IMG/VR virus record: IMGVR_UViG_3300021431_000008
DNA from: a virus
Taxonomy: Duplodnaviria; Heunggongvirae; Uroviricota; Caudoviricetes
DNA: 64,000 nucleotides
Strand: one strand, 5' to 3'
Positions 2,759 through 64,000 of the stretch are shown here, one piece after another. The notes under the pieces were generated by a model. It was not told where the DNA came from, did no database searches, and worked only from the letters and a program-made list of their open reading frames with translations. Position 1 is the first letter of the stretch. Each line of letters opens with the position of its first letter. Both the position numbers and the translations under genes were made by a program.

Positions 2759-3001
2759 TTATCTGCGACCGCCGGTCCAGCTGTCAGCTACTTTCGCAAG
2801 CTGCTCAAACTGAGCCTGGGTCATTTGCCCTCGCTGCATCATCTGTCGAACCATCTGTTCGGCAGATAAGCCGGTCGGGGCTAATTGTTGGGCCATGCCC
2901 TGAAGCATCTCATTCAGATTGGCGGGCGGTCTCTGAGCGCCCTGAGTCTGCTGATAGGATTTATAAAGCGGATTCGCACTCATTTCTCTTGCCCCCTCCA
3001 T
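2759..3001 (-). CDS. hypothetical protein (Q/M-rich)
   Basis: 80-aa ORF on the dominant strand; a plus-strand 265-aa ORF covering it looks antisense and low-complexity. Confidence 0.4.
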   Translation of the reverse strand: MEGAREMSANPLYKSYQQTQGAQRPPANLNEMLQGMAQQLAPTGLSAEQMVRQMMQRGQMTQAQFEQLAKVADSWTGGRR

Positions 3002-9688: not shown

Positions 9689-10260
9689 TACCCTTCAACC
9701 TCCCGCATCGACTCCTGAGCCCAGGCGTCTTTTTCTTTGATCGTACAGATAATTTCCTCCATACGGTCTTTATCAGGCATATACTCCTGAATGTCGTCGT
9801 TTTGATAGATCCGAAGATTTACTTTTGTGTTCAGAGGATTCACGCCAAAGGCGCGTTCATACTCCAAAAGAAAAAGAGCAGCATAAATCTCAAGCTGCTC
9901 CATGTGAACCGGGCCTGAGCCCGTCTTTAAGTCATGAATGCGAAGGACACCATGACTGAAGTCGATCGCATCAGTATGCCCGAAACAGGTGTCTGAATAT
10001 TTCAGCGCTACTTCAGGTGTCATGCCGTAACCGATCGCATCGTTGACGTATGCGGTCAGCGTCTGTGTCGAACCTCTAAGCTTGAGACCTTCCTGAATCA
10101 GCTTTGCAGCCAAGTCGTGAAGTCTCGTTCCTCTTGCAGCAGCATTCTGAGAGAGAATATAAGCCCGAAGCTGATCCTGCGTATAGTTCAACCAATAGGG
10201 CTTACTTGGACTTAGAAGCGCGTGTTTTCCTTCCAGTTCGAAATGCCTGTTGAAGTTCAT
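9688..10260 (-). CDS. PD-(D/E)XK family nuclease (RecB/Cas4-like fold)
   Basis: HTDAIDF...LRIHDLKTG (D...D-x-K) and EQLEIYAALF motifs; start moved to MNFNRHF, preceded by GGAGG. Confidence 0.6.
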   Translation of the reverse strand: MNFNRHFELEGKHALLSPSKPYWLNYTQDQLRAYILSQNAAARGTRLHDLAAKLIQEGLKLRGSTQTLTAYVNDAIGYGMTPEVALKYSDTCFGHTDAIDFSHGVLRIHDLKTGSGPVHMEQLEIYAALFLLEYERAFGVNPLNTKVNLRIYQNDDIQEYMPDKDRMEEIICTIKEKDAWAQESMREVEG

Positions 10261-10525: not shown

Positions 10526-10585
10526 CTCGCGAAAACCCTGAGAAAGAGTAAAAAATGCAGTATCTACTCTCCTCTATTCTAGGCG

Positions 10586-10602
10586 GTGTAAATTTTACGA
10601 AT
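10586..10602 (-). promoter_or_regulatory. copy of repeated CGTAAAWTTNACA promoter-like box (upstream of the VRR-NUC gene)
   Basis: plus strand gtgtaaattttacgaa; member of the ~35-copy family. Confidence 0.5.
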
Positions 10603-21444: not shown

Positions 21445-21490
21445 AAATAAAGATTTTTTTGTTTATTTGAGGGTTTTCCTCATTAAAGGA

Positions 21491-21507
21491 CTTGCAGAAT
21501 TTACGAA
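21491..21507 (-). promoter_or_regulatory. copy of repeated promoter-like box
   Basis: plus strand cttgcagaatttacgaa; on minus TTCGTAAATTCTGCAAG then TTTAAT 18 nt downstream. Confidence 0.5.
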
Positions 21508-24354: not shown

Positions 24355-24413
24355 TTCGCGATTCTCCTTTCAAAAAATATAGGAGAGGTGCTCATCTTCC
24401 TCTCCTTTATAGT

Positions 24414-24431
24414 CCCTGTAAATTTTACGAC
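24414..24431 (-). promoter_or_regulatory. copy of repeated promoter-like box followed by TATAAA
   Basis: minus strand CGTAAAATTTACAGGGAC-TATAAA; here the hairpin lies between the box and the RBS. Confidence 0.5.
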
Positions 24432-25171: not shown

Positions 25172-25242
25172 TTCGTTTCTCCTCTCAAATATAATGTAAG
25201 CATCTCTGCTCTATTAGAGGAGTTGTTAATTTTACGACAATC

Positions 25243-26525: not shown

Positions 26526-26568
26526 AGTATTTCACTCCTTCCTATTAAAGGAGATGCAAGAGTTACGA

Positions 26569-34897: not shown

Positions 34898-34955
34898 TTT
34901 CTTTTCCTCCTATAAAAATTAGTTAGTTTTTTATGTCTGTCTCCTCATAATAGGA

Positions 34956-34977
34956 ATTGTAAAATATACGAAAAAAG
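34956..34977 (-). promoter_or_regulatory. copy of repeated promoter-like box + hairpin
   Basis: attgtaaaatatacgaaaaaag followed by the agagcgaggt...acctcgctct hairpin. Confidence 0.5.
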
Positions 34978-35528: not shown

Positions 35529-35583
35529 AAATATCCTCCTTAAATTTTGTAAGCATATAGCTCCATTTAAAGAGTTGTAATAA

Positions 35584-35865
35584 TTACGATGCCTCTACCT
35601 CTTTTGTAGCATTAATGATTGCATTTATTTCGTATTTCATGGCTTCTACAATTCTTCGTCTGCAATCGGGACAAAGATCTTGAACTGGTAGACTTTCGCC
35701 AAGGATCGCCATATCATTGTGTACCCAACCTTTTGGTAAATCTTCAAACATTTCGTCTTTGCAACGATAACCTCCGTTTAGAAATGTATTTTCATTTATC
35801 GCTTTGCTGAAAATAGTTGTTTTACATACCGAACAAGTTGTGAGACGTCCTACTATCTGAGACAT
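35584..35865 (-). CDS. Zn-ribbon protein
   Basis: CSVCK ... CPDCRRR. Confidence 0.45.
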   Translation of the reverse strand: MSQIVGRLTTCSVCKTTIFSKAINENTFLNGGYRCKDEMFEDLPKGWVHNDMAILGESLPVQDLCPDCRRRIVEAMKYEINAIINATKEVEAS

Positions 35866-44659: not shown

Positions 44660-45067
44660 TCAGTTATCTCCGTAAGTCATAATAATATTTACCGGAATAT
44701 CAGGATTCGCGAAGTTTTCGATCATCTTTTCTCCGAAATCGCCAAGGTATGGAAGAAAAGTGTCAAGGACCATAACGCATCCTTCATCGCCACAAACTTT
44801 CCAATGTTCTTGAATATCATAATGACTACCCCAGTCAGGAATCGGAAGATCGGGAACAGATTGGGCAACACTAACGTTTCGCTGATTTAAGGAGTGGATC
44901 CAATAAGCCCATGTACCAATAGCAACACTACCTCCTATGACGCTCATGATAATTGCTGCCTTGTTATCCTTACAGAATTTTTTGATCTTTTCAAACATGT
45001 TCATTTCTCCTTTCATTTTGAACAAAAAAATGAGAGAAGCCGTATTGTAGCTTCTCTCTTCCCTCAT
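44660..45067 (-). CDS. hypothetical membrane protein
   Basis: 135 aa; TM AAIIMSVIGGSVAIGTWAYWI. Confidence 0.5.
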   Translation of the reverse strand: MREERSYNTASLIFLFKMKGEMNMFEKIKKFCKDNKAAIIMSVIGGSVAIGTWAYWIHSLNQRNVSVAQSVPDLPIPDWGSHYDIQEHWKVCGDEGCVMVLDTFLPYLGDFGEKMIENFANPDIPVNIIMTYGDN

Positions 45068-45084
45068 TATAAAGGCTGCAAATT

Positions 45085-45300
45085 TTACGAATACATTTTC
45101 GAATTATAGTACTCTCGAACGGCGTGTCTCTCGTCTTCGAACTGGTGCAGGCGTTCATCGATCCATGCGTCCATTTCCTCCAGAGACTGGTACTCGCCTT
45201 TCTCCAGATACTCATAGACCTGCTCCTCGAACTTCTGCCGCATCATCGTCAGAATAAGATTACGCTTGTTTTTAGTCCATTCGCGTTCTTCTTCGTTCAT
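45085..45300 (-). CDS. hypothetical small protein
   Basis: 71 aa; promoter-like box 45074..45092 lies just downstream of the stop and serves the next gene. Confidence 0.45.
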   Translation of the reverse strand: MNEEEREWTKNKRNLILTMMRQKFEEQVYEYLEKGEYQSLEEMDAWIDERLHQFEDERHAVREYYNSKMYS

Positions 45301-45432
45301 ACTTTCACATCCTTTCTATTATAAGATTTGTAGAATTTTCGATTCGAACTTTGTGTATTCCTCCTATTGCATTTCTGAAAGGATTATGTTAGCGTTTAAA
45401 GCGATCTTTTAGAATGTAGGAGGTATTCTAAG

Positions 45433-45669
45433 ATGGCTAAAAATGACGTTTGGATTCGCTCTGAAGATCGTGGAGATCAGGTCTATGTGGAATGGGGCAA
45501 TGAAAATGGTCTCATTGGAACGGAAATGGTCAGTCGCGAAGAATACTATGCGACCCCTGAGAGTAAATCTAGCTCTTACAATTCTTATGACGACGAGCCG
45601 GATTGTGTCGCTGGCTGTGGCGGAGATTGGCCGAACTGCAAATATACATGTCCGCTGTATGACGACTAA
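45433..45669 (+). CDS. small plus-strand protein with C-terminal Cys cluster
   Basis: GGAGG RBS 8 nt before the ATG; CVAGCGGDWPNCKYTCPLYDD; rare plus-strand gene, convergent with 45666..46013. Confidence 0.5.
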   Translation: MAKNDVWIRSEDRGDQVYVEWGNENGLIGTEMVSREEYYATPESKSSSYNSYDDEPDCVAGCGGDWPNCKYTCPLYDD

Positions 45670-46013
45670 CTTTCTTCCCACTCCTCTTTCCTAAGTGGCT
45701 TCATGCGAAGCGCCCACATAACCTGACGAACCGTGTAGGTAGGATACAGTCCGTTCTCGTCTGGCGCATTGGCATGATCAACAAAGTACATTTCGAATCC
45801 TTTATTTAAGTAAATATCACCGGCAAGCCAGGGCTCGATGGAACTCCACCACCGGGCCTTGGACTTTTTATTATACTTTTCCTGAATAATTGCCAGACCG
45901 ACAGATCCGTCCTTACTCTGAAAAAGCGTACATTGGTTATACTTTGGATGGTCACAAATATAAACTTTTCCCGCTCCGACCCAGTTTTCCGGCTTTTCGT
46001 AATAGTATTTCAT
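45666..46013 (-). CDS. hypothetical protein
   Basis: 115-aa ORF. Confidence 0.5.
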   Translation of the reverse strand: MKYYYEKPENWVGAGKVYICDHPKYNQCTLFQSKDGSVGLAIIQEKYNKKSKARWWSSIEPWLAGDIYLNKGFEMYFVDHANAPDENGLYPTYTVRQVMWALRMKPLRKEEWEES

Positions 46014-46076
46014 AGATCACTTACATTTTGAATGAAAAAAAAGAGAAGGACTCTGTAAGAATCCCTCTCCGATTGG

Positions 46077-46418
46077 TCAAATATCCTTATCGTCTGTGAT
46101 CATGAAGATCACTTTGTCGGACGACGCGAAGTTCCCTGCATCAAGCAGTCCCTGGATGAAGGTCGGCGCCGATTTCATGCTTGCCTCCCCGTTCAGGTAG
46201 GTCTTCCCGAACTGGCGATAGTGCTGGTAGCACTTGCCCTCCGGAATGTCGAACTTAAAAAGTTCGGTCGTATTCCGTTTGACATGCCACAGCCAACATC
46301 CGCCAGCTCCAAGAAGAACTGCCGACATGGCAGTAAAGCCGATCTCGTATGCATAGTCCTTCACGAACTGTTTGAAATTAAACTTCTGTTTCTTTTCCTT
46401 CATTGTTATTTCCTCCAT
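46077..46418 (-). CDS. hypothetical membrane protein
   Basis: 113 aa; TM IGFTAMSAVLLGAGGCWLW. Confidence 0.5.
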   Translation of the reverse strand: MEEITMKEKKQKFNFKQFVKDYAYEIGFTAMSAVLLGAGGCWLWHVKRNTTELFKFDIPEGKCYQHYRQFGKTYLNGEASMKSAPTFIQGLLDAGNFASSDKVIFMITDDKDI

Positions 46419-46515
46419 AATTAATTAGATAAGGTCTCAAACCTCTCATTTATAACGTTGCAGGTTTTACGAAAAAAGCTAAGACACTGTAATATCAGCG
46501 CTTAGCTTTAGCTGC

Positions 46516-46764
46516 TTACGTTTCAGCAGGATTCGTTGACTTTATGGTAATGTATTTGGATACTAATGTTGCACTTCGGCATGCAGCTTTATATGTAATC
46601 ACACCGACCATGAACTTGGCGAACGATGGCATGTTTGACTTCATGCACAAGACGCCAACTACGATCTCAGTGATCATTCGAGCCGTATGACCATAAACTT
46701 GACTTGCATCCCAAGTTGCTTTTTCCATTTCCATAAATTTAACCTCCAAATATAATGTAAGCAT
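46516..46764 (-). CDS. hypothetical protein
   Basis: 82 aa, flanked by the cassette motif. Confidence 0.4.
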   Translation of the reverse strand: MLTLYLEVKFMEMEKATWDASQVYGHTARMITEIVVGVLCMKSNMPSFAKFMVGVITYKAACRSATLVSKYITIKSTNPAET

Positions 46765-46819
46765 ATAGCTTCATTTATGAAGCTGTAATTTTTACGAAAA
46801 AAAGAGAGCCGCTGTTAAG

Positions 46820-47182
46820 CTAGCTCTCCTCTCCTAAGTAATATAAATAACCTGGATCGATGTCTATTACGTAAGAAGCGCGAGTTTCTTTCATATATTC
46901 TTCGAAGCGTATACATAAATCAAACACTAGTCCTTTATCATTACTGGCAAAAAACACAAGATCATGACTTATAGGTGTTTCTTCGTATCCTAGTTTATGC
47001 TCATTGTCCAAATGCTCATCAATGATGCTAAAAACATGCCATACGTCAAGCAAACCAATGCGGTCAAGCTCGGTGTTTAATGCGTTAACAATTCGAACTA
47101 ATGTTTCAAATTTTGCTATGATATATGCGTCAAAAAATTGAAAATAACATACGACTTCATTTTCGTAATCCATTAGTTTCAC
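46820..47182 (-). CDS. hypothetical protein
   Basis: 120 aa, flanked by the cassette motif. Confidence 0.5.
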   Translation of the reverse strand: MKLMDYENEVVCYFQFFDAYIIAKFETLVRIVNALNTELDRIGLLDVWHVFSIIDEHLDNEHKLGYEETPISHDLVFFASNDKGLVFDLCIRFEEYMKETRASYVIDIDPGYLYYLGEES

Positions 47183-47234
47183 CTCCTATCTTTGGAGCTG
47201 TAGAAAATACGAAAAAAGAAGAGCCGCTGTTAAG

Positions 47235-47498
47235 CTAACTCTTCTTGTAGAAGTTTTCTAATAGATTATTTATAGTTTTTTCTGTGCTGTATAGCGCACC
47301 TATTTCAGGTTTCACCACCATGGTATAACCAACGGTATTGTACAGTTCTACATTTTTAGGGTCTTGCCCGTATTCGGTAAGGCCCTGAAGCAATTCGACA
47401 TACGCGTCACCTACCGCAACGTGAAACTTTGAAATGATTCCTGCTAATTCTTTACTACGTTTCATGTTATCTACAAATAATTCATTCATAGTTTTCAC
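47235..47498 (-). CDS. hypothetical protein
   Basis: 87-aa ORF. Confidence 0.45.
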   Translation of the reverse strand: MKTMNELFVDNMKRSKELAGIISKFHVAVGDAYVELLQGLTEYGQDPKNVELYNTVGYTMVVKPEIGALYSTEKTINNLLENFYKKS

Positions 47499-47553
47499 CT
47501 CCTCTATTTATGAAATTGTAGAATCTACGAAAAAAGTAAAGCCACTGCGGGCC

Positions 47554-47847
47554 TTACTTTTTAGTGTTTACCATTTCTGTCGCTATAAGATCGATCTTGA
47601 ACAGCTTATGAATATCAAGACTATCAATCATGATAGGTAATGTTCCTCCACTGTCTTTGAATAGAATCACTTCGAAATATCCTCCGGAATATGGATCGCA
47701 GTCATAAACCGCGTAAGCTTTTCCTTTGAATATTCTGGCGATTCTTTCCGCTTTATGAGCAGTTGCCAACATATACTTACCAGTGAAATAACCTTTATAC
47801 AAAAATAGCTCTTGATCGCTTTTTGCTCTCCAAATTTGCATAAACAT
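47554..47847 (-). CDS. hypothetical protein
   Basis: 97-aa ORF. Confidence 0.45.
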   Translation of the reverse strand: MFMQIWRAKSDQELFLYKGYFTGKYMLATAHKAERIARIFKGKAYAVYDCDPYSGGYFEVILFKDSGGTLPIMIDSLDIHKLFKIDLIATEMVNTKK

Positions 47848-47900
47848 CGCTCCTTTCTATCTAATAGGTTGCAGGTTTTACGAAAAAAAATAAAAAGTTG

Positions 47901-47973
47901 TGAGAGTTACCCCGCTTCGAACAGGGGTCTCCGAAATATAAATTCCGGCGCTCTACCATTGAGCTATTATGGA
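47901..47973 (-). other. tRNA-like element / degenerate tRNA (intact D- and T-arms, non-pairing acceptor stem, 8-nt anticodon loop)
   Basis: minus strand TCCATAATAGCTCAATGGTAGAGCGCCGGAATTTATATTTCGGAGACCCCTGTTCGAAGCGGGGTAACTCTCA. D-stem GCTC/GAGC, T-arm CCCTG-TTCGAAG-CGGGG, but the 5' TCCATAA cannot pair with the 3' TAACTCT. Confidence 0.35.
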
Positions 47974-48070
47974 TCGTTGGGGCCCTTTCATCCCCGGGCT
48001 CGCATAACCGTCCCATTCGCCTTCCTCTCACTATAGGAGGTGTAGAATTTGCGAAAAAGGAAAGCCGGTG

Positions 48071-48271
48071 TCAGCTTTCCAATACCGGCTCTTCCTCGAT
48101 TATATAATATTCTTCAGGTATATATTCAGGATAATCATCTAATTCGTCGGCTAAGATTCCATTATGTTCCTTTACATAGTTTAAAGCCCCTTGCTCAGAC
48201 TTAAATACTCCAGCAAGTTCCTCGTGACCATTTGCAAGCAGGATCTCGCGCCATAAAATGTATACCTTCAT
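48071..48271 (-). CDS. hypothetical small acidic protein
   Basis: 66-aa ORF. Confidence 0.45.
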   Translation of the reverse strand: MKVYILWREILLANGHEELAGVFKSEQGALNYVKEHNGILADELDDYPEYIPEEYYIIEEEPVLES

Positions 48272-48296
48272 ATTAATATCACCTCCTATTATAAAG

Positions 48297-48318
48297 CCTG
48301 TAAAATTTGCGAAAAAAG
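48297..48318 (-). promoter_or_regulatory. archetypal copy of the promoter-like box
   Basis: minus strand hairpin GAGAGAGC..GCTCTCT, TTTTTT, CGCAAATTTTACAGGCTT, TATAAT, AGGAGGTGA, 7 nt, ATG. Confidence 0.55.
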
Positions 48319-48328
48319 AGAGCCGTTG

Positions 48329-48613
48329 TTAGCTCTCTCTGTCCATATCTTCGAATAATGCACGATACTCTTTCTTTATCGCATTGATTGATTTGTTTAT
48401 TGCATTAACATCTCTAAGTGCCTCGATTCGTAACTGAGTAGGATCGACGTTATTCAGAACAACTTTACCATTTTCAACATGGCAAACTTCTGGATTTTCC
48501 GCCTTCCAAATAGTTTCAAAAATGAGTTGATCACGCTTTTGATCTAATGCTTTCATAACACTATCTCTTACTTCCGCTTTGTAAAGTTCGTATTGCATCG
48601 ACATTATAGTCAC
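48329..48613 (-). CDS. hypothetical protein
   Basis: 94-aa ORF. Confidence 0.45.
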   Translation of the reverse strand: MTIMSMQYELYKAEVRDSVMKALDQKRDQLIFETIWKAENPEVCHVENGKVVLNNVDPTQLRIEALRDVNAINKSINAIKKEYRALFEDMDRES

Positions 48614-48657
48614 CTCCTATCATAAAGCCTGTAGAATTTGCGAAAAAAGAGCCGCTG

Positions 48658-48933
48658 TTAAGCTAGCTCTTTTTCTAGTATTCCGTAACTTCCAATAAAA
48701 GTTAAAAGTCGATTAGAATCCATACTACTTTCTTGCGTAATGCGTTCGATCCATAGATCTTCAAATATTGGTCCTTCACAGCGCTTTGCATTTGGCCACG
48801 TTTTTTCTATGTATTCTTCAGCATCCAATTTGCTTTTAAATACACTAAAAATCTGCGACATTACTAAATTGCCGTCATCAATTCCAGTATTTTTTTCTCC
48901 ATAGAAGTCTCCATATACCACATATACTTTCAT
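48658..48933 (-). CDS. hypothetical protein
   Basis: 91-aa ORF. Confidence 0.45.
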   Translation of the reverse strand: MKVYVVYGDFYGEKNTGIDDGNLVMSQIFSVFKSKLDAEEYIEKTWPNAKRCEGPIFEDLWIERITQESSMDSNRLLTFIGSYGILEKELA

Positions 48934-48963
48934 ACGGTTTTCATCTCCTTTCCTATTTTATGA

Positions 48964-48986
48964 ATTGTAGAATTTGCGAAAAAAGA
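48964..48986 (-). promoter_or_regulatory. copy of the promoter-like box + hairpin
   Basis: ttgtagaatttgcgaaaaaagagagccgttgtagctctctc. Confidence 0.5.
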
Positions 48987-49003
48987 GAGCCGTTGTAGCT
49001 CTC

Positions 49004-49384
49004 TCACATGTGAATCCAAGGTTGCGCATCCAAAACATCCACCTGGGTTTCATAAATAGAATATACCGGAAGAACCTTTAGCCACGTGTCGCCATATTCA
49101 TCAGCTTTAAACGCATACCACGAAAGAGTATCCCGTTCGAGCCAATAGCTGAACATTTCGCTATCGAAAATATCAACCTTCTCATCTCGTTTGGGCATCA
49201 ATCCGTGAATATGGTTCATCAGCTCAATACTGAAAGCGATCTTGCCTGATTCTGTTTCCATCTTTTCCTGATTTATTTTATCTCTATAAGACGCCATGTC
49301 GCATCCCTCCTCATTTATGAAGCTGCAAAATATACGAAAAAGTAAAGCCGTTGTCGACTCTACTTTTACTGACTTACATATCAA
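49004..49384 (-). CDS. hypothetical protein
   Basis: 126-aa ORF. Confidence 0.5.
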   Translation of the reverse strand: MICKSVKVESTTALLFRIFCSFINEEGCDMASYRDKINQEKMETESGKIAFSIELMNHIHGLMPKRDEKVDIFDSEMFSYWLERDTLSWYAFKADEYGDTWLKVLPVYSIYETQVDVLDAQPWIHM

Positions 49385-49691
49385 AGTGATAAAATTTCGC
49401 GATATATTCCATCGTATTCAGCGGCTCTTCCATATCATCTGTCATCGCGTCGTACTGTTCAAACCAGTAGCCGGCTCGTGATATCCAGGCGCTCCACCGG
49501 AGTCTAAAGAACTTGAGCAACGTCGGCTTATTCACCGATTTATTGATCAGGTTAAAGTAGAACTTTTCGATGAGGCGCGACAAATACCAGAGTTTATACA
49601 AGGCCCAGTACTTTGGCGTGATTTTTACAAGCTTAAACCAAGCCCGCAGATACTCTTTTGCATCTTCTCTATCCACTAGTTTTACCTCCAA
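49374..49691 (-). CDS. hypothetical protein
   Basis: 105-aa ORF; promoter box 49723..49741 upstream, back-to-back with the integrase start. Confidence 0.45.
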   Translation of the reverse strand: MEVKLVDREDAKEYLRAWFKLVKITPKYWALYKLWYLSRLIEKFYFNLINKSVNKPTLLKFFRLRWSAWISRAGYWFEQYDAMTDDMEEPLNTMEYIAKFYHFDM

Positions 49692-49776
49692 ATATAATGT
49701 AAGCTTATAGCTCCATTTATGAAGTTGTAATTCTTACGAAAGCATGTTATACTTCCATTTTGAAGGAGGAATGCCG

Positions 49777-50823
49777 ATGAAATTACCCAGGGCAAAGAAA
49801 CTACCATCTGGAAATTGGCGGATTCAAATCGCAGTTGACGGCAAACGGTACAGTATTACCGATCCCGATCCGAAAGTCGTCAAGCAAAAAGCAAAGGAAC
49901 TTTATGCAGGCCTTCAGTTCGAAAAGCGCATACCTCTCACCGTCGGCAAAGCTTTCGATCAATATATCGAGGCAAAAGACAGCGTTCTCTCTCCTGCTAC
50001 CATTCGAGGTTATAAAAAAATCCGAAAAAACTATCTTCAGTTCCTCATGAAAGAAAATATCACGGATCTCACGCAGGAGCAGGTGCAGAAAGCCATCAAT
50101 GCCGACTTTAAACGTGGCGCAAGCAGCAAATCAGTAAGGAATGCTCACGGGCTTCTCAGTGCAGTCTTAAAAGAATATCGTCCAAACTTCGTCCTGAGAA
50201 CAACACTTCCTCAGAAAGAGCCTCATGAAATCTCTATCCTTACCGAAGATGAGCTCAAGAAACTCTATGCGGCAGCCGAAGGAACCAAGTATTACCTTCC
50301 TATTGTTTTGGCATCCTGGCTCGGTCTTCGTATGAGTGAAATTCGTGGACTTAAGTTTTCGGATATCATCGACGAACGGATTCACATTCAGCGAGCCATT
50401 GTCGAAGGAGAAGATGGACCTGCTGAAAAACTTACGAAGTCCTTAGCTGGTGACCGCTGGATTAAATGCCCGAATGAGATTAAGACCCTTATTGATCAGC
50501 AGCCACGCGATTCCGAATACGTAGTTCCTCTCACTCAGGCTGCGATCTACAAGGGCTTTATCCGTCTCTGTGAAAAGGCAAATATAACACAATGCCGCTT
50601 TCACGATCTCAGGCATTTCGCAGCATCTGAAGCCCACTCTCTTGGTGTTCCTGATAAATATGCTATGAAGCGTATGGGACACAAAACCGATAATATGCTG
50701 AAGACGGTTTATCAGCACACGATGATCGAAAAAGAGGATTCGTTCTCAGATTTAATCGACTCTCACATGGAGTCGCTCTTTTTAGGCGCTAAAACTGCAC
50801 ACGAAACTGCACACGCCGAGTAA
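49777..50823 (+). CDS. int: tyrosine site-specific recombinase / phage integrase
   Basis: C-terminal catalytic box CRFHDLRHFAASEAHSLGV...MGHKTDNMLKTVYQHT (R..HxxR..Y); start set at MKLPRAKK, 7 nt after GGAGG. Confidence 0.85.
   Translation: MKLPRAKKLPSGNWRIQIAVDGKRYSITDPDPKVVKQKAKELYAGLQFEKRIPLTVGKAFDQYIEAKDSVLSPATIRGYKKIRKNYLQFLMKENITDLTQEQVQKAINADFKRGASSKSVRNAHGLLSAVLKEYRPNFVLRTTLPQKEPHEISILTEDELKKLYAAAEGTKYYLPIVLASWLGLRMSEIRGLKFSDIIDERIHIQRAIVEGEDGPAEKLTKSLAGDRWIKCPNEIKTLIDQQPRDSEYVVPLTQAAIYKGFIRLCEKANITQCRFHDLRHFAASEAHSLGVPDKYAMKRMGHKTDNMLKTVYQHTMIEKEDSFSDLIDSHMESLFLGAKTAHETAHAE
50790..50816 (+). repeat. tandem arm-type repeat AAACTGCACACG x2 (candidate integrase arm sites, P arm)
   Basis: aaactgcacacgaaactgcacacg overlapping the last codons of int. 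Confidence 0.45.
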
Positions 50824-50863
50824 ACTTTCCTGATTTCATGCGTATTTGAAGGCCTTTTCTATA

Positions 50864-50890
50864 GGGGTTCAACTCCCCCCATCTCCACCA
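50864..50890 (+). mobile_element. attP-like core: 3' fragment of a tRNA gene (T-arm + acceptor + CCA) immediately downstream of int
   Basis: ggggttcaactccccccatctccacca = T-stem GGGG, loop TTCAACT, CCCC, acceptor 3' strand CATCTCC, A, CCA; no matching 5' half nearby. Confidence 0.6.
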
Positions 50891-50896
50891 ATTTCC

Positions 50897-50929
50897 AAAG
50901 CCCTGAGCCACAACGGTTCGGGGCTTTTT
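50897..50929 (+). terminator. rho-independent terminator of int
   Basis: aaagccc...gggcttttt (AAGCCC/GGGCTT stem + T5). Confidence 0.5.
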
Positions 50930-50987
50930 CTTTGATTTCAAGCGGTTTGCAGTCACTTAAGTATGCGAAATATCTTTCATGTCGGAA

Positions 50988-51036
50988 ACCGAAATTGCAC
51001 ACAAAACAGCTAAAACTGCACACGAAATTGCACATG
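50988..51036 (+). repeat. arm-type repeats (GAAATTGCACAC, AAAACTGCACACG, AAATTGCACATG; P' arm candidate)
   Basis: three more copies of A(C/T)TGCACA(C/T)G within 50 bp on the far side of the tRNA-fragment core. Confidence 0.45.
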
Positions 51037-51082
51037 AAAAAAATGAAAGTAGCTGTAAGAACTACTTCCATTTTGATTAATT

Positions 51083-51277
51083 TCAGACCTTCTTGAAGGG
51101 ACCCACGAACTGGAGTCCAATGTAGCAAGCCAGGAACGCCAGAATAACTTTGTGGCTCGCAATCCAGTCAAGGATGTTCAGGTTTCCAGACACGATGTCT
51201 GAACCGAAATTCACCAGACCGTACGCGACACACAGCGCCAGTGGCACCATCAGCATTGCATAAATAACTCTTTTCAT
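51083..51277 (-). CDS. small two-TM membrane protein
   Basis: 64 aa; VIYAMLMVPLALCVAYGLV and ILAFLACYIGLQFV. Confidence 0.45.
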   Translation of the reverse strand: MKRVIYAMLMVPLALCVAYGLVNFGSDIVSGNLNILDWIASHKVILAFLACYIGLQFVGPFKKV

Positions 51278-51542
51278 ATTAAATCCTCCTTTTATAATTA
51301 GGTCTTTCTATTATAAAAGGTGCGATTTTTACGAAAAAAGAGGGGGCTGTGTTGTTATTTCAGCCCCAAGGATCGTCACTTATTTACCATCATGAGCACG
51401 AGGCCCAGCACTACAACACCTATTGGTCCAAATTGTGTGAATGCCAGGATAGCTCCTGCACCTATGAGTAGTAATTTCATGGATCCTTCGTTATTCATCA
51501 ACATTCCTCCTCTTTTTATTATTGCATTACTGCATTATAGAG

Positions 51543-51565
51543 TCTGCATATTTTACGAAAAAAGG
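51543..51565 (-). promoter_or_regulatory. copy of the promoter-like box + GGAAAGCC..CTTTCC hairpin
   Basis: tctgcatattttacgaaaaaaggaaagccgttgtagactttcc; on minus TATAAT lies 18 nt after CGTAAAAT. Confidence 0.5.
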
Positions 51566-51594
51566 AAAGCCGTTGTAGACTTTCCTTTTGAGAC

Positions 51595-51960
51595 TTACTT
51601 TCTTCGCCTCTCTTTCCGCAAAAGCCCCATATCGTTAAGAGCTTCTCCTTTGGACTCGCCGTCGATCATGCGACTACCGAGTTCCAAGATTTCATTGTTT
51701 GTCAAAGGATGCTTCAACATGAACTCTTCGCCAGTCACGTCATCCTCGGATAAACAACGATCATTCTGATTGGCTCCAGCCAGCATGCTAAGGCCCTTAA
51801 AGGCCAAGCTGCCGACCATGGATACCATCGGAAGTACCATTGCCGGATTCTTGGATACGAACTCAGCGAACGAATTCAGTCCCGAAGTTACCTTCGCTTT
51901 CGTCCTCTGAAACCAGCTTCCTTCAGCTTTCGTTGTTTCGACCGTTTTGTTTTCGTCCAT
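51595..51960 (-). CDS. hypothetical protein
   Basis: 121 aa; hydrophobic core AMVLPMVSMVGSLAF. Confidence 0.45.
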   Translation of the reverse strand: MDENKTVETTKAEGSWFQRTKAKVTSGLNSFAEFVSKNPAMVLPMVSMVGSLAFKGLSMLAGANQNDRCLSEDDVTGEEFMLKHPLTNNEILELGSRMIDGESKGEALNDMGLLRKERRRK

Positions 51961-52063
51961 AAGTTTTTCCTCCTTTTAAATTTAAACTTCTGCATTATAG
52001 AACCTGTAAAAAATGCGATAAAAATAGGAACCGCTGCAAGCGCAACAGCCCTATTTTAGTAAA

Positions 52064-52315
52064 TTAGCCTTTCATTTTTCTGATACTACGATAGATACTT
52101 TCCGTTCCGATCGCCAGTGACATAAACACGATGATTCCAGCAACAACCGTATGCCAGGGAACGCTATAAAATGCATGCGTATACTCGAGATAAGTTACGC
52201 CTTCGAACTTCATATCGAAGATCGTAGCTATCCCAAGCTCCGTAAGACACATTACTGCGTCCATGATCATCAGGATCGCCAGAATTCCAAGTCTCATCCA
52301 TGCCGATTTCTTCAT
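52064..52315 (-). CDS. small membrane protein
   Basis: 83 aa, three hydrophobic helices. Confidence 0.45.
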   Translation of the reverse strand: MKKSAWMRLGILAILMIMDAVMCLTELGIATIFDMKFEGVTYLEYTHAFYSVPWHTVVAGIIVFMSLAIGTESIYRSIRKMKG

Positions 52316-52646
52316 AACTTTAAGCTCCTTATAATATAGTATTCAGAAAGACTTACTTTCCTATCTTATAAGCTGCCAAAATTACGAAAAAAGGAAAGCC
52401 GTTGTAGGCTTTCCTTCCATGGCATAGATTACTTAAGATTGGATCGTTTTGTATAATACTTATCAACAGCCCACTTAACTACCGTTCTAATAATCGTAGC
52501 AAGTCCTACAAACTCTAAAACAGTTTCCGTGCTGTCCTTCATATTTTTCATAACTTTCCTCCTATTATGTAATATTCTGCATTATAGGGCATGCAAAAAA
52601 TACGAAAAAAAGGAAAGCCGTTGTAGACTTTCCTTTAGAACTTATC

Positions 52647-52844
52647 TTACTTAACAGGAAACATCTTAGTTAATTTGTGCATCGATATCCCGAGAATAGC
52701 GGAAACTTCTGATGGCGAATAACCCTCGCTAAGCAATTCGCATGCTTTTCTTTTGCGCTTCATTGCATAATACGCTTCGATAATACCTCCAGTCACAGCT
52801 CCGCATACAACAAAAGCCGTCGAATACACAAAAAATTTCTTCAT
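52647..52844 (-). CDS. small membrane protein
   Basis: 65 aa; FFVYSTAFVVCGAVTGGII. Confidence 0.4.
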   Translation of the reverse strand: MKKFFVYSTAFVVCGAVTGGIIEAYYAMKRKRKACELLSEGYSPSEVSAILGISMHKLTKMFPVK

Positions 52845-52891
52845 ATTATATATCCTCCAAATATAATGTAAGCTTACGCTCCACTATAAAA

Positions 52892-52913
52892 GCTGTAACA
52901 TTTACGAAAAAAG
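52892..52913 (-). promoter_or_regulatory. copy of the promoter-like box + hairpin
   Basis: agctgtaacatttacgaaaaaaggaaagccgttgtagactttcc. Confidence 0.5.
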
Positions 52914-52974
52914 GAAAGCCGTTGTAGACTTTCCTTATAGATTTAGATACCTACGTAATTCTATTCTTTAGTTT

Positions 52975-53331
52975 TTAATGAATATCGAGATCTCTTTCTA
53001 AACGCTCACATTCTTTAGATATTTCATCATATTTAATACGTACTATTCGTTGAATTTCATCTTCGCTTAAGAAATCTTTCAATGTCAACACTCGCATATG
53101 ATTAAGGTTTTCTTTATCACGAATAATAAACTCATAATCGTTTGCAAATGCTACTTTCAAAATATCTTCAAACGAAAACGAATTTCGCTGAAGTTTCGTA
53201 TTAAAATAGTGCGAAGAGCAACCTAAATATGGCGCTATAGTTGCTGGTGTTCTTTCTCGTTGTTCATTAAACCATTTTACTAAAAATGATTTTTTTCGAT
53301 TAATCCAAGTATCTTTTTTCATATGTTTCAC
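52975..53331 (-). CDS. hypothetical protein
   Basis: 118-aa ORF. Confidence 0.45.
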   Translation of the reverse strand: MKHMKKDTWINRKKSFLVKWFNEQRERTPATIAPYLGCSSHYFNTKLQRNSFSFEDILKVAFANDYEFIIRDKENLNHMRVLTLKDFLSEDEIQRIVRIKYDEISKECERLERDLDIH

Positions 53332-53344
53332 CTCCTATTTTACA

Positions 53345-53366
53345 AGTTGCCAAAATTACGAAAAAA
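53345..53366 (-). promoter_or_regulatory. copy of the promoter-like box + hairpin
   Basis: agttgccaaaattacgaaaaaaggaaagccgttgtagactttcc. Confidence 0.5.
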
Positions 53367-53407
53367 GGAAAGCCGTTGTAGACTTTCCTTCCATTTTGAT
53401 TCCTAAA

Positions 53408-53806
53408 TTACTTCTTCAGGATCAGATCACGACAACGCTCACTGAATTTGTTAAACTGCGGGCTCTTCTGAAGCCATGGATCTAGCACATAGCTAACGCC
53501 AAGACTTCCGAATCCGGCTACAAAATAAGCTCCAATCTGCCCCCAGGTCGACCAAATCTTCTTCTTTTCGACTCGCGTCCGCTCTCTCTCAACTTCAAGC
53601 TTCTGCTCCTCAATGTCGCATTTCGCATTGTTGTTGAGGCGAGTGCTTTCTGCGTTCGCTTCGTTCAGTTTGATCTCCTCCAGGGACTTGATCTCGCTCA
53701 TGACTTTGCCTCGGTTCGGATCGTCATATTTCATGCGCCCGAGCTCCTCGTAGGCCTCGTGAATTCTAGTTTCCCGCAATTCATCGATTGTGTTCAGTCC
53801 GTCCAT
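53408..53806 (-). CDS. hypothetical coiled-coil protein with C-proximal TM
   Basis: 132-aa ORF. Confidence 0.45.
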   Translation of the reverse strand: MDGLNTIDELRETRIHEAYEELGRMKYDDPNRGKVMSEIKSLEEIKLNEANAESTRLNNNAKCDIEEQKLEVERERTRVEKKKIWSTWGQIGAYFVAGFGSLGVSYVLDPWLQKSPQFNKFSERCRDLILKK

Positions 53807-53842
53807 AAATCTACCTCCATAAAATAATTTTGGATCGTTCCA

Positions 53843-54091
53843 CTATACAGCCTGTGATTTTTGCGAAAGATCATTTTCAACTTTAAAAACAAGCTGTGTC
53901 TTATCTTTTATTTCATCCAGTTCAAGATCTAAAACAAAACGAATTCGATCTCTTTCGCCATCTTCCGTTTGCTCAAGGACAACAGTTCCATCAATATTCT
54001 TTTTCAGACCGAATCTTCCAATAATGAAACCGATAGCTAGGCATACAATGGCGATACAAACCAGAATGACATACTCTTTCACGTTGTTCAC
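53843..54091 (-). CDS. N-terminally membrane-anchored small protein
   Basis: 82-aa ORF. Confidence 0.45.
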   Translation of the reverse strand: MNNVKEYVILVCIAIVCLAIGFIIGRFGLKKNIDGTVVLEQTEDGERDRIRFVLDLELDEIKDKTQLVFKVENDLSQKSQAV

Positions 54092-54153
54092 CTCCTCTCA
54101 CAAAAAAAGAGAAGACCATGTAATGAGTCTCCTCTCATGTTGAAGGAAAGAGA

Positions 54154-54351
54154 TTAGTTTTTCATTTCTCCAAGAATTTCAACGAACATTTTCGACATAC
54201 TTCCGACTGCTACGGCGATTTCCGTGATCACCACAACCGGCTGGCTGAGAAACCATCCAAAGGACGGCACTTCTCGACCAATCAGGTTCCAGGCGATCAG
54301 CAGACTGATCACCAGTACAAAGTTAACAATGTGCGTATAAATATTTTTCAT
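54154..54351 (-). CDS. small membrane protein
   Basis: 65-aa ORF. Confidence 0.4.
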   Translation of the reverse strand: MKNIYTHIVNFVLVISLLIAWNLIGREVPSFGWFLSQPVVVITEIAVAVGSMSKMFVEILGEMKN

Positions 54352-54490
54352 TATAAATTCCTCCTATAATAAAGTTATTGTTCTCTTCCTCTTCATTATA
54401 GGCGCTGCAAATCTTACGAAACTTCCATTTTGATGAAAAAAAATAGAAGCTGCGAAAGATCCGGGAAGCTGTCAACTTCCCAAATCTTGA

Positions 54491-54844
54491 TTAAACACTA
54501 ACACCGTCAATAAGTGCTTTCTGGAGTTTCCCCAGTTCCACCATGACGTGACTCGTTCTCTGCAGAATCTGCTTCGGATCCCGATCGAACCTAATTTCAT
54601 AAGCCAATTCCATTATTCTTGTTTTATAGTGTTCAATCGTGTCTAAGTTCCTAAAACCATCATCAATTACTTTCTTTAATTTGACAATTTTTTCAGAATC
54701 TATCTCTAATCCACTTTCGAATCGATCTATATCAACAGCTAGTATCTCAGCTTTATCGGCTAGTTCTTTCTTAGTCCATCTCAGAGCAATTCTTCTAAAA
54801 CGATACACTTCAAACGATCGCATTTCTGTGACCCCCTTTGACAC
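54491..54844 (-). CDS. HTH (XRE-like) DNA-binding protein
   Basis: WTKKELADKAEILAVDIDRFESG. Confidence 0.5.
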   Translation of the reverse strand: MSKGVTEMRSFEVYRFRRIALRWTKKELADKAEILAVDIDRFESGLEIDSEKIVKLKKVIDDGFRNLDTIEHYKTRIMELAYEIRFDRDPKQILQRTSHVMVELGKLQKALIDGVSV

Positions 54845-54943
54845 TTTGAAGTGTTGGTTTGCTCATTATATGGACTGTGATTTTTTCGATAAAAATAAAA
54901 GAGACCCTGTAAAAGAGTCTCTTTTAGATCGCTTTAGCTTTCA

Positions 54944-55186
54944 TCAGGCTGCGATTCTATGCAGTTCGTTCAGCTCTGTAGTGTAATAGAACCACGCCAG
55001 ATCAGCTTTCTTGTAGTAGCGCTCGAAGTTCTCGGATACGGTCCAGAACAAGTCGCTCTCAAATATAAGTTTGACATGCTCCAGGCCGAGATAGAACTCA
55101 GCAACGCTCTTGTAAAGCTGATAATGGACATAGTGCCATCCCATCGCAAGTTTTGTAAAGAATTTACGCATAATAATAGCCTCCAA
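54944..55186 (-). CDS. hypothetical small protein
   Basis: 80-aa ORF. Confidence 0.4.
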   Translation of the reverse strand: MEAIIMRKFFTKLAMGWHYVHYQLYKSVAEFYLGLEHVKLIFESDLFWTVSENFERYYKKADLAWFYYTTELNELHRIAA

Positions 55187-55236
55187 TTATAATGTAAGCC
55201 GTATAAGCTCCATTATAATAGGTGTAATTTTTACGT

Positions 55237-55539
55237 TTACCTCCTCCTGCTGAGTAGCCAAAAGAACTGTCGATACGCATAACGAAGCGAAACGGGCAGT
55301 ATTATCCCCTCAACCGTAACATACTGCAAAATATCACAGCCTGTTAATCTGGCGCAATCTTCAACCATTGTCATATAGGTCTTCAGATCGCCACGCCGGA
55401 TCCCATCTTTCGAAGTCGTGTCGCCATCTCCGCTCCAGCCATCTGCGTTTTCATACATTTCCTTCCATTTTGAATACTGCAAAGCGAAATGCTTGAGCTC
55501 ATAAAAGCGATGCTTACTCAGTTCGTATTCAGTTTTCAT
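55237..55539 (-). CDS. hypothetical protein
   Basis: 100-aa ORF. Confidence 0.4.
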   Translation of the reverse strand: MKTEYELSKHRFYELKHFALQYSKWKEMYENADGWSGDGDTTSKDGIRRGDLKTYMTMVEDCARLTGCDILQYVTVEGIILPVSLRYAYRQFFWLLSRRR

Positions 55540-58318: not shown

Positions 58319-58440
58319 CCAGAGAATTCTGAGTATGGGCCTGATTCATGCCATAGGCCATCAACGACAGAACTCTCTGAATCTTTCTCATCATGTTTTC
58401 TTCGCTCCTTTCTTTTCATATAATTCTTCTCACTATAGAG

Positions 58441-58458
58441 TTTGCAGAATTTACGAAT
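58441..58458 (-). promoter_or_regulatory. copy of the promoter-like box upstream of the 57602..58318 gene
   Basis: tttgcagaatttacgaat. Confidence 0.45.
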
Positions 58459-58511
58459 CGAAAAAGCGAAAAAAAATAGCCCCTGTAGATTTTACAGAGG
58501 CTATTTCATCA

Positions 58512-58808
58512 TTAAAGACCTAGCAATATTTTCGCTGCTGCCAGCTCATCTTCCAGTGCTGCGACTTTTTCCGTTAACTCGGCTCGTGACAATGGCTGTG
58601 TCGGCAGTTCTCCTTCGTCCGGAACTGGTATTACTGGATAATCATCCTCCGGGTCGGGCTCTGGTTCTACTGGAACAACTTCTATTGGAACCTCATGATA
58701 GTTTTCAATTGCATCTTTAGGCCCTAAAATAAGTGCTGTATAGAAGGCCGTCTCATCGCTATTGGCGAAAACGTAGCCTTCTGAAGGATGTAAAATTTCG
58801 AAAGCCAT
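58512..58808 (-). CDS. hypothetical acidic protein
   Basis: 98-aa ORF. Confidence 0.4.
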   Translation of the reverse strand: MAFEILHPSEGYVFANSDETAFYTALILGPKDAIENYHEVPIEVVPVEPEPDPEDDYPVIPVPDEGELPTQPLSRAELTEKVAALEDELAAAKILLGL

Positions 58809-63806: not shown

Positions 63807-64000
63807 GCTGCAGCCTCCCATCCATAAACGCCGGGTTCCCAAACATTACCGTCGCCGAAGGTATTAATCCAATGCTGACCATTGTGACTTACCTTAGCAT
63901 TAGCGGCATAAGCGTCTTGAGCACCGGTAGGCTGTCTCCATTCAGGCCACTCTTCACCAGGCTCATCGACTCGAGTCCAGATCGCCGGAACAAGATGAGG
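63803..64000 (-). CDS. partial CDS (N-terminus beyond the window): C-terminal CBM5/12-like carbohydrate-binding module, probable tail fibre/adhesin
   Basis: hand translation of the rc gives ...EWRQPTGAQDAYAANAKVSHNGQHWINTFGDGNVWEPGVYGWEAAA*, matching CBM5/12 (AY..G..V.YNG..Y.a.wW..g..P). Confidence 0.5.
   Translation of the reverse strand, partial: PHLVPAIWTRVDEPGEEWPEWRQPTGAQDAYAANAKVSHNGQHWINTFGDGNVWEPGVYGWEAAA

Follow-up and report, generated by a model that had tools for sequence, protein, structure and literature searches.

A 64,000-nucleotide stretch of tailed-phage DNA (Caudoviricetes; IMG/VR virus record IMGVR_UViG_3300021431_000008), referred to here as the window, contains 33 copies of a 25-nt sequence box, and we consider it somewhat better than an even chance that this box is the cognate promoter of the single-chain, two-barrel RNA polymerase (RNAP) encoded by the same phage (open reading frame [ORF] 6566-9688). 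An earlier sequence-only reading of the window had proposed a dedicated promoter class, possibly for that polymerase. Comparative evidence lends support to this proposal, short of proving it, in that the box occurs together with the polymerase in phages of two bacterial phyla.

The sequence-only reading had described a repeated module of about 35 copies. Its seed pattern, scanned over the window with up to 3 mismatches allowed, gave 13 matches against 0.01 expected. A 25-nt position weight matrix (PWM), built iteratively from the sites and run on both strands, recovered 33 boxes of 22 to 33 bits, all 33 on the minus (coding) strand and 0 on the plus strand, while shuffled sequence scanned with the same PWM yielded 0 to 4 hits at ≥9 bits. 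The repeat is thus real, and the alignment of all copies that had been suggested recovers it as CG(Y)A-W5-T(R)CA-N5-TATAAT-R. Twenty-four of the boxes lie inside 45,060-55,240, and the other nine fall exactly at the outlying positions listed in that reading (Table 1). The geometry was also as described, with a fixed register of C1 and G2, A4, C12 and A13, and a hexamer at positions 19 to 24 (18 nt after the C). C1, G2, A4, and C12 were found in 33/33 copies and A13 in 32/33; positions 5 to 10 were A/T rich, positions 14 to 18 were weakly conserved, and the hexamer bases were counted as T27 A22 T21 A28 A29 T32 (of 33). Position 25 was a purine in every box, as it was in 20 seed sites selected without the use of that position. 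Most boxes lie 11 to 52 nt upstream of start codons. Nearly all genes of the window are on the minus strand, and those between the boxes are ORFs of 40 to 130 amino acids (aa), few of which have Pfam or PHROG hits.

The proposed reader of the box is a 1040-aa protein that matches phrog_4291 (E=5e-302) and carries GADYDGD, the DxDGD loop of a double-psi beta-barrel. A helix-turn-helix (HTH) of the sigma-region-4/LuxR type was located at aa 137-185, closely preceded by a second HTH, and a third lies toward the C terminus. An AlphaFold model (mean predicted confidence, pLDDT, 76) was matched by Foldseek to QDE-1 (E=6.5e-7), and the predicted structure has the fold likeness to QDE-1, YonO-type, or phage two-barrel RNAPs; an RNAP profile search against PDB sequences returned only HTH hits and a marginal AR9 beta' hit. 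Judged by its modeled, QDE-1/beta'-like fold, the protein is a two-barrel RNAP with fused DNA-binding modules. No T7-like RNAP was found among the Pfam or PHROG hits of the window, in which the only polymerase found was the two-barrel one. Together with a replication module consisting of a 1409-aa primase-polymerase, a helicase, and a Cas4-like exonuclease, this ORF places the phage in the group of FP_oengus, the Lactococcus 1706-like phages, and a large actinophage supercluster described by Koert et al. (bioRxiv 10.1101/842583). The HTH-bearing polymerase is a signature gene common to all phages of that group; the protein was noted there only as a putative RNA polymerase, and promoters were unmentioned (10.1101/842583). 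Two further observations concern the N-terminal part of the protein. The stretch at aa 71-91 (~9418-9478, minus strand), HYGTPRHSGRYPWGSGKNPQR, was invariant in 31 homologues, kept across phyla, and predicted to be disordered (pLDDT <50); it resembles a conserved linear motif, perhaps a packaging signal or an initiation "finger." The invariant N-terminal peptide HYGTPRHSGRYPWGSG had no Pfam match, leaving a link to DUF7211 unsupported.

As the sequence-only reading had recommended, other phage genomes were searched for the box, which was found in phages of both Bacillota and Actinomycetota. Every examined isolate with this polymerase (7/7) had the same box geometry, and over-represented words in four isolates led to the same element without prior assumption. 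The box reads CGCGTAAATTACA-cgggc-TATAAT in Arthrobacter phage Circum (9 copies), CGCAGAAATTACA-cgccc-TATAAT-GAGACCCCTA in Gordonia phage Duffington (7 copies), CGCGATAAAAACA-tcgct-TATAAT in Bifidobacterium phage BitterVaud1 (5 copies), CGCAAGTTTTACA-gcctc-TATAGT-GAGACCCCTAC in Streptomyces phage Scap1, and TTTAAGTTTTACA-taccc-TATAAT in Lactococcus phage P078 (10 copies). Faecalibacterium phage FP_oengus has 15 copies of CGCGAAAAAWWCA-N5-CTTTAT-G, on the coding strand only, each of them upstream of the polymerase gene, with the late half free of boxes; the window PWM had no hits in this genome, and the variant box surfaced only when the intergenic regions were read. IMG/VR relatives with polymerases 43 to 59% identical keep CGTAAWWTTTACA-N5-TATWRT, present singly or as two or three tandem copies roughly 1 kb ahead of the polymerase. 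With equal weight given to each phage, conservation reached 100% for C12, 99% for T24, 94% for T21, 92% for A13, and 86% for C1 and G2, with a purine at position 25 in 100% (G in 89%) and purines throughout positions 25 to 27. That this register is maintained across hosts of two phyla suggests a reader encoded by the phage. In Scap1 and Duffington the box is followed by a nearly invariant GAGACCCCTAC, and several annotated start codons of Scap1 ignore these box-GAGACCCCTAC units.

The association extends to uncultivated phages and prophages. An exact-pattern scan of IMG/VR found at least 120 loci, often lying among ORFs dissimilar to those of the window, with at least 429 sites on one strand versus at least 4 on the other. 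Of 159 polymerase-bearing viral or prophage loci that were sampled, mostly Clostridia prophages and gut-phage contigs, 129 carried at least one box; 248 boxes were on the polymerase strand and 4 on the opposite one, and 100 were positioned 800 to 1000 nt upstream of the polymerase start, preceding the exonuclease gene. The hexamers of these loci (TTTTAT, 99; TATAAT, 48; TATTAT, 29; CTTTAT, 15; TGTTAT, 11) track the polymerase clade. SPbeta, which encodes the distant relative YonO (839 aa), had no box upstream of its late operon (best score, 6.3 bits). A search for a box or half-box at the late-operon junction of the window, Oengus, and Scap1 found only a degenerate CGGTTTTTTTACA-acgtc-TAACCG, and TACA-N5-TAWSCG in relatives. 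As possible negative controls without the polymerase, Enterococcus phages that share the DNA polymerase proved unsuitable, being only 23% identical over a third of the protein.

On sequence grounds, the box is not a sigma-A promoter, a view already taken in the sequence-only reading and now supported, though unproven, by the comparison with relatives. The lack of a TTGACA-like -35 was borne out: the -35 position of the boxes holds only the T-run or variable sequence, and canonical -35/-10 pairs occurred at chance level (24 versus 24.3 expected). No strong canonical or extended -10 promoter was detected in any intergenic region of the 64 kb, and TRTGnTATAAT was absent from the window. The TTTACA-like part stops 5 bp short of the hexamer, a spacing that no sigma-70-family factor known to us could accommodate. 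The -10 element of this family has a near-invariant A at -11, which it requires, and T at -7; in the boxes, T24 is present in 32/33 window copies but A20 in only 22/33, and A20 occurs in 0/15 sites of FP_oengus. With many family hexamers lacking the -11 A, host sigma-A cannot be the general reader of the box. The earlier description of the -10 as canonical therefore holds for the window lineage, with its TATAAT consensus, but not across the family, where the hexamer is T-W-T-W-A-T and TTTTAT is the commonest form in the sampled loci. Two other arrangements were set aside. On inspection, TTTACA as the -35 of a -10 farther downstream, giving leaderless mRNAs, misfits in spacing and would exclude the Shine-Dalgarno sequence (SD); and none of the consensus sequences compared, those of sigma-54, sporulation sigma factors, SPO1 gp28/gp34, and TcdR-type factors, fits the 5-bp gap between ACA and the hexamer.

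A second departure from sigma-A promoters concerns the start of the RNA. Sigma-70 promoters start about 7 nt after the -10, and the sequence-only reading expected the same here. In FP_oengus, a full-length tRNA-like gene (2936-3005; Rfam, 47.9 bits) with a terminator-like T-rich end upstream begins two bases past the hexamer (2928-2933), and loci L110/L111 and L100 (tRNA-Val) have the same layout, with a tRNA(-like) gene 1 to 2 nt after the hexamer; if the box drives these genes, the RNA must start at position 25 to 27. About 10 window sites have an SD beginning 0 to 3 nt past the hexamer, and about 15 have a hairpin beginning 0 to 2 nt past it. Were RNA to start 7 nt downstream, the SD would be lost in those roughly 10 copies, the 5' hairpins would be cut off, and the relatives' tRNA(-like) genes would be truncated, so that expectation is not supported: to judge from these layouts, the purine immediately after the hexamer is the more likely start site. 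The short leaders that had been predicted are supported by comparative evidence, though unproven. AGGAGG straight after the hexamer, described as general, was confirmed for about 10/33 copies and not for the remainder, which have leaders of 29 to 52 nt. tRNA-like elements with a shortened anticodon arm were found in the window (47909-47967, minus strand), FP_oengus (L008, 2936-3005), P078 (L011, 19523-19584), L110, and L111, with Rfam tRNA scores of 31 to 48 bits and an ARAGORN "anticodon" of 2 nt for those of Oengus, L110, and L111; in several family members they lie between box and terminator, which suggests that a small RNA is conserved.

Several points weigh against the phage polymerase as the reader. 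In the window, 22/33 hexamers could serve as a sigma-A -10, which leaves room for a host contribution. Boxes precede early and middle genes, and the late (structural) region has none, whereas the one phage relative to have been characterized, YonO, acts on late genes and does so from one start site (PMC5467207). A box also stands ahead of the polymerase gene, meaning that the first polymerase must be made or delivered by other means, and no sign that it is packaged in virions was found. The co-occurrence of box and polymerase is confounded by common descent, and another conserved phage protein could be the reader. We know of no member of this polymerase family with demonstrated transcription activity. 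When hexamer classes were compared with polymerase residues, mutual information pointed to HTH2, but it was confounded by phylogeny and was not used as evidence. The boxless late region, the source of the first polymerase, and the late-gene role of YonO are the reasons why the phage polymerase is only modestly favored here.

Some of these points would suit a host RNAP promoter without a -35, in which sigma-A would read TATAAT plus a G-rich discriminator, a phage or host activator on the box would replace the -35 contact (compare MotA/AsiA at T4 middle promoters), and the phage polymerase would be kept for the late operon like YonO. The hexamer consensus of the window is TATAAT (T24 in 32/33, A20 in 22/33), the presence of the box before early and middle genes, including the polymerase gene, would be expected if the host polymerase acts first, and both the late genes transcribed by YonO and the boxless late region fit as well. 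We nevertheless regard this explanation as unlikely. Hexamers of the relatives are mostly TTTTAT, CTTTAT, or TATTAT, the -11 A is missing from all 15 Oengus sites, and a start 7 nt downstream would have the costs set out above. Moreover, with one box geometry in two phyla, the helper would have to suit very different sigma-A proteins, and Pfam found no sigma-like or MotA-like protein among the 114 ORFs of the window.

Terminators accompany many of the boxes. The hairpin families reported in the sequence-only reading, GGAAAGTC..GGCTTTCC and GAGAGAGC..GCTCTCT, each followed by T5-8, are present in the window, and terminator-like sites in the region numbered 19 versus 7.5 expected. A terminator-like hairpin and T-run stands directly upstream of 20/33 boxes and is missing at 13/33; what had been described as one terminator-promoter module is thus better seen as two separable elements that are often juxtaposed. 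The proposal that each gene is insulated as its own unit is supported, though unproven, by comparative evidence. The 20 boxes that follow a terminator bear on whether the repeat could be an RNA-level signal in read-through polycistronic RNA (a processing site, 5' untranslated region element, or translation enhancer) or a functionless cassette spread by recombination. The cassettes do reach 85% identity over 67 nt, and several share a further leader module, GCTTACATTATATTTGGAGG, but boxes straight after a terminator would mostly not be transcribed from upstream, the conserved positions make no RNA helix, the box also precedes tRNA-like genes and the polymerase operon, and its sequence and register are kept between phages with unrelated flanking genes. 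We therefore give this explanation very little credence.

The near-palindromic core that the sequence-only reading emphasized did not prove to be a conserved property. The palindrome GTAAAATTTAC was seen in the window consensus only, the relatives have no common symmetry center, and the co-variation of positions 3 and 11 that a palindrome calls for is missing. This tells against the 13-nt upstream box acting mainly as the operator of a phage repressor or regulator (such as one of the XRE-type HTH proteins encoded in the region) that jointly silences many lytic promoters in the lysogen, an explanation otherwise in keeping with a temperate phage (integrase, prophage relatives), the presence of XRE-type HTH genes, and the nearly palindromic window consensus. 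Invariant bases in fixed register with the hexamer and the purine at 25 are a promoter property, as an operator could sit freely. An operator function, which we consider improbable, would also leave the transcribing enzyme unnamed, and it is compatible with, not opposed to, a promoter read by the phage polymerase.

If the phage polymerase does read the box, the promoter element would span 25 to 27 nt: C1 G2 (Y) A, an A/T-rich stretch, T10 R11 C12 A13, N5, the hexamer T-W-T-W-A-T (19-24), and purines at 25 to 27. The polymerase would bring its own DNA-reading modules, two N-terminal HTHs and one C-terminal HTH, one of them sigma-region-4-like, which might dock on three conserved patches (1-2, 11-13, and 19-24). 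The patches are about 10 bp, or one helical turn, apart and so would lie on the same DNA face; the matching of three HTH motifs to three patches, like the identity of the reader and the exact start, is something we infer. The A/T hexamer would melt, and RNA would begin at the adjoining purine, position 25 or 26, giving leaders of 11 to 52 nt that open with an SD or a 5' hairpin. The hairpin and T-run before 20/33 boxes would serve as the intrinsic terminator of the preceding gene, such that terminator and promoter together would make each small early gene its own transcription unit, and the homology of the repeated cassettes could promote gene shuffling. A box ahead of the exonuclease-polymerase operon would make polymerase expression self-reinforcing (positive feedback), with transcription at infection perhaps set off by polymerase from the virion or by a trickle of host transcription. 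Late genes would depend on another promoter class or on read-through from the polymerase operon across the joined genome ends. A broader version, which we put forward only tentatively and think less likely than not, is that one self-sufficient, sigma-independent polymerase runs essentially the whole lytic program, with a tripartite promoter read by three HTH modules, a start after the A/T hexamer, virion-delivered or host-primed onset, a feedback switch for lysis versus lysogeny, and portability between Bacillota and Actinomycetota.

Among known systems, promoters of the T7/T3/SP6 type are alike in being contiguous, phage-specific elements of about 25 bp before many genes, with, on the start proposed here, an A/T melting segment to -1 and a purine at +1; the presumed purine-rich initial transcript (GAGACCCCTAC in the Streptomyces and Gordonia phages, GGGAGA in T7), apparently sigma-independent recognition, and drift of specificity between related phages are further likenesses. 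The enzyme here is, however, two-barrel (QDE-1/YonO/beta-beta' lineage), whereas that of T7 is Pol-I-like, and the box is therefore not a member of the T7-type promoters. It consists of three patches with nonconserved spacers (14-18 unconserved) rather than a continuous -17 to -5 specificity region, and its likely readers are HTH motifs rather than a specificity loop. The predicted structure is similar to those of phage two-barrel RNAPs (P23-45 gp96, a virion protein, and gp64; gp66 of the crAss-like phi14:2; the nonvirion enzymes of AR9 and phiKZ; YonO). To our knowledge, fused HTH domains have been reported for no other phage two-barrel RNAP. As shown for P23-45, such phage RNAPs have short motifs of their own that recur ahead of groups of phage genes (PMC10770324); the motif here differs in sequence and marks early and middle genes. 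The promoter of YonO is still undefined and serves one late operon, and its phage, SPbeta, lacks the box.

Other comparisons concern the cassette and the hexamer. The promoter(early) stem-loops (PeSLs) of T4-type phages are terminator-promoter cassettes flanking small variable early genes (PMC2839356, PMC4122927). They resemble the present arrangement in combining a stem-loop terminator with a promoter (20/33 boxes), in making each gene its own unit, and in providing homology that could drive modular shuffling, but their promoters are sigma-70 early promoters of Gram-negative myoviruses, while those described here are non-sigma-70 elements of unrelated siphoviruses. T4 middle promoters likewise have a -10-like hexamer without a -35 and a conserved upstream box; there, the MotA box is centered at -30, 11 to 13 bp from a true TAnnnT -10, and host sigma-70 is needed, whereas here only 5 bp separate the end of the box from a hexamer that is often without the -11 A and that the start seemingly abuts. 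The hairpin promoter of the N4 virion RNAP has a 5- to 7-bp stem and a 3-nt loop in its recognition element; 13/33 boxes have no hairpin, and those present lie upstream of the box, with T-runs, and are terminator-like. No description of the box motif or of a promoter of this polymerase family was found within the literature searched.

Table 1. Boxes (all located with the PWM) and other features of the window
Feature	Coordinates	Strand	Remarks
box CGAAAATATTGCT-aggtc-TTTAAT-g	58510..58534	-	22.6 bits; terminator upstream absent; hairpin and T-run directly after
box CGTAAATTCTGCA-aactc-TATAGT-g	58431..58455	-	28.6 bits; terminator upstream
box CGTAAAAATTACA-cctat-TATAAT-g	55211..55235	-	free-standing; leader module GGAGC..GCTTACATTATAATTGGAGG
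box CGAAAAAATCACA-gtcca-TATAAT-g	54864..54888	-	terminator upstream; XRE-type HTH gene next
box CGTAAGATTTGCA-gcgcc-TATAAT-g	54394..54418	-	30.6 bits
box CGCAAAAATCACA-ggctg-TATAGT-g	53841..53865	-	
box CGTAATTTTGGCA-acttg-TAAAAT-a	53336..53360	-	terminator GGAAAGTC..GGCTTTCC; SD begins 1 nt past hexamer
box CGTAAATGTTACA-gcttt-TATAGT-g	52882..52906	-	terminator
box CGTATTTTTTGCA-tgccc-TATAAT-g	52580..52604	-	terminator
box CGTAATTTTGGCA-gctta-TAAGAT-a	52362..52386	-	terminator
box CGCATTTTTTACA-ggttc-TATAAT-g	51993..52017	-	terminator
box CGTAAAATATGCA-gactc-TATAAT-g	51533..51557	-	terminator
box CGTAAAAATCGCA-ccttt-TATAAT-a	51309..51333	-	terminator
box CGTAAGAATTACA-acttc-ATAAAT-g	49714..49738	-	free-standing; back-to-back with integrase promoter region
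box CGTATATTTTGCA-gcttc-ATAAAT-g	49312..49336	-	terminator; SD directly after
box CGCAAATTCTACA-attca-TAAAAT-a	48954..48978	-	terminator
box CGCAAATTCTACA-ggctt-TATGAT-a	48618..48642	-	terminator; AGGAGG abuts hexamer
box CGCAAATTTTACA-ggctt-TATAAT-a	48287..48311	-	terminator; AGGAGG abuts hexamer
box CGCAAATTCTACA-cctcc-TATAGT-g	48029..48053	-	terminator; noncoding stretch with tRNA-like element (47909-47967) downstream
box CGTAAAACCTGCA-accta-TTAGAT-a	47858..47882	-	terminator
box CGTAGATTCTACA-atttc-ATAAAT-a	47505..47529	-	terminator
box CGTATTTTCTACA-gctcc-AAAGAT-a	47187..47211	-	terminator
box CGTAAAAATTACA-gcttc-ATAAAT-g	46772..46796	-	terminator; 5' hairpin leader module
box CGTAAAACCTGCA-acgtt-ATAAAT-g	46447..46471	-	terminator
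box CGAAAATTCTACA-aatct-TATAAT-a	45317..45341	-	free-standing
box CGTAAAATTTGCA-gcctt-TATAAT-g	45065..45089	-	best PWM score, 33.3 bits; terminator-like hairpin directly after
box CGTAATTATTACA-actct-TTAAAT-g	35564..35588	-	middle region
box CGTATATTTTACA-attcc-TATTAT-g	34946..34970	-	terminator; near tRNA cluster
box CGTAACTCTTGCA-tctcc-TTTAAT-a	26543..26567	-	
box CGTAAAATTAACA-actcc-TCTAAT-a	25212..25236	-	
box CGTAAAATTTACA-gggac-TATAAA-g	24405..24429	-	then hairpin and T-run
box CGTAAATTCTGCA-agtcc-TTTAAT-g	21481..21505	-	32.2 bits
box CGTAAAATTTACA-ccgcc-TAGAAT-a	10575..10599	-	precedes exonuclease-RNA polymerase operon; position kept in relatives
Cas4-like exonuclease	9688..10260	-	first gene of polymerase operon; phrog_3953
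two-barrel RNA polymerase, single-chain, 1040 aa	6566..9688	-	HTH1 ~aa 101-130, HTH2 ~aa 137-185, HTH3 ~aa 1005-1030; proposed box reader
TTGTAA-17-TG-TATACT	49725..49753	+	upstream of integrase gene (49777-50823); sole reasonable host-type promoter near the region
leader-module copies	46743-46762, 49685-49704, 52854-52873, 55180-55199, 25182-25201	-	directly after the box
12-mer TCAAAATGGAAG (5' ends)	58222, 56730, 55473, 54433, 53399, 51076, 49763, 46031, 45021, 43081, 42812, 4985, 1316	-	

A leader module, GRAGC-N5-6-GCTTAC-ATTATATTTGGAGG, directly follows the box in 5 to 6 genes, and FP_oengus has an analogous leader hairpin plus ATTTATATTTTGGAGG; the shared module may be a 5' stabilizer or translation enhancer. 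A hairpin and T-run follows within 5 to 15 nt of the boxes at 58510-58534, 45065-45089, 24405-24429, and 10575-10599, and the same layout is found at the tandem boxes of loci L001 to L005, which suggests very short RNAs or attenuators, perhaps needing antitermination. A second repeat, TCAAAATGGAAG, occurs in 13 copies at ≤1 mismatch (0.9 expected), on the minus strand only. It includes an ATG and forms the gene start after an SD at three sites, forms an apparent gene start without an SD just past a terminator T-run at 58222 and 46031, and lies upstream of a terminator hairpin at 53399 and 51076. An ORF of about 105 aa (MKYYYEKPENW...; 46003-45686, minus strand), which lacks an SD and begins 9 nt past a copy of TCAAAATGTAAG, was missed by a simple gene caller.

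Megablast of the region against isolated phages gave no match. The phage is temperate, with an integrase gene and prophage relatives, and its host group is Clostridia: relatives are prophages of Oscillospiraceae, Lachnospiraceae, Ruminococcus, Blautia, Hungatella, and others, the closest residing in an Oscillospiraceae metagenome-assembled genome (54% identity), and some occur in actinobacterial genomes (Atopobium, Collinsella, Rothia, and Actinomyces). Gene order is the same as in FP_oengus and Scap1: early ORFans, replication genes, exonuclease, polymerase, small ORF, genome end, and late genes. A conserved sequence about 500 nt past the polymerase gene forms the end of five IMG/VR contigs; the window reads through the homologous site and so represents a circular or concatemeric assembly. 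Beyond the polymerase operon (~6270-5790, minus strand) there are a strong terminator and a degenerate half-box, together with a conserved block rich in G/C, CACCCGGGAGGGGGTC...AATCGCGGCGGTC, which is where the five contigs end and is probably a cos site or genome end. By the integrase gene (49777-50823, plus strand), at ~50,860-50,890, TGGTGGAGATGGGGGGAGTTGAACCCC is the reverse complement of a tRNA 3' end and, on that match, a likely attP core, with a tRNA gene as the integration target; it has phage early genes on both sides, which indicates that the window is not an integrated prophage. The 1673-aa ORF at the end of the late region (58821-63842, minus strand) has no Pfam domain, and its homologues (25 to 49% identity), in Bacteroides temperate phages (Hankyphage p00 group) and a human fecal phage, are only hypothetical proteins; it was considered as a candidate virion RNA polymerase.

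The polymerase family is large, comprising at least 8000 protein clusters at 90% identity, with at least 500 viral contigs and prophages in at least 280 bacterial species, and is annotated almost everywhere as "helix-turn-helix DNA-binding protein." It is encoded by 250 isolated phages, among them numerous SEA-PHAGES actinophages, lactococcal dairy phages, and Faecalibacterium phage Oengus, which is present in up to 40% of human gut virome samples (PMC5883640). A candidate promoter makes self-sufficiency and sigma-free promoter finding testable with one protein and one oligonucleotide. The box could allow early, middle, and late genes to be annotated in hundreds of phage genomes and could improve early-gene annotation of Streptomyces and Gordonia phages, and the polymerase and its promoter, being compact, could be put to use for orthogonal gene expression in Gram-positive bacteria. 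If the broader version is true, enzyme and promoter would together constitute a naturally host-independent transcription system, portable between Bacillota and Actinomycetota.

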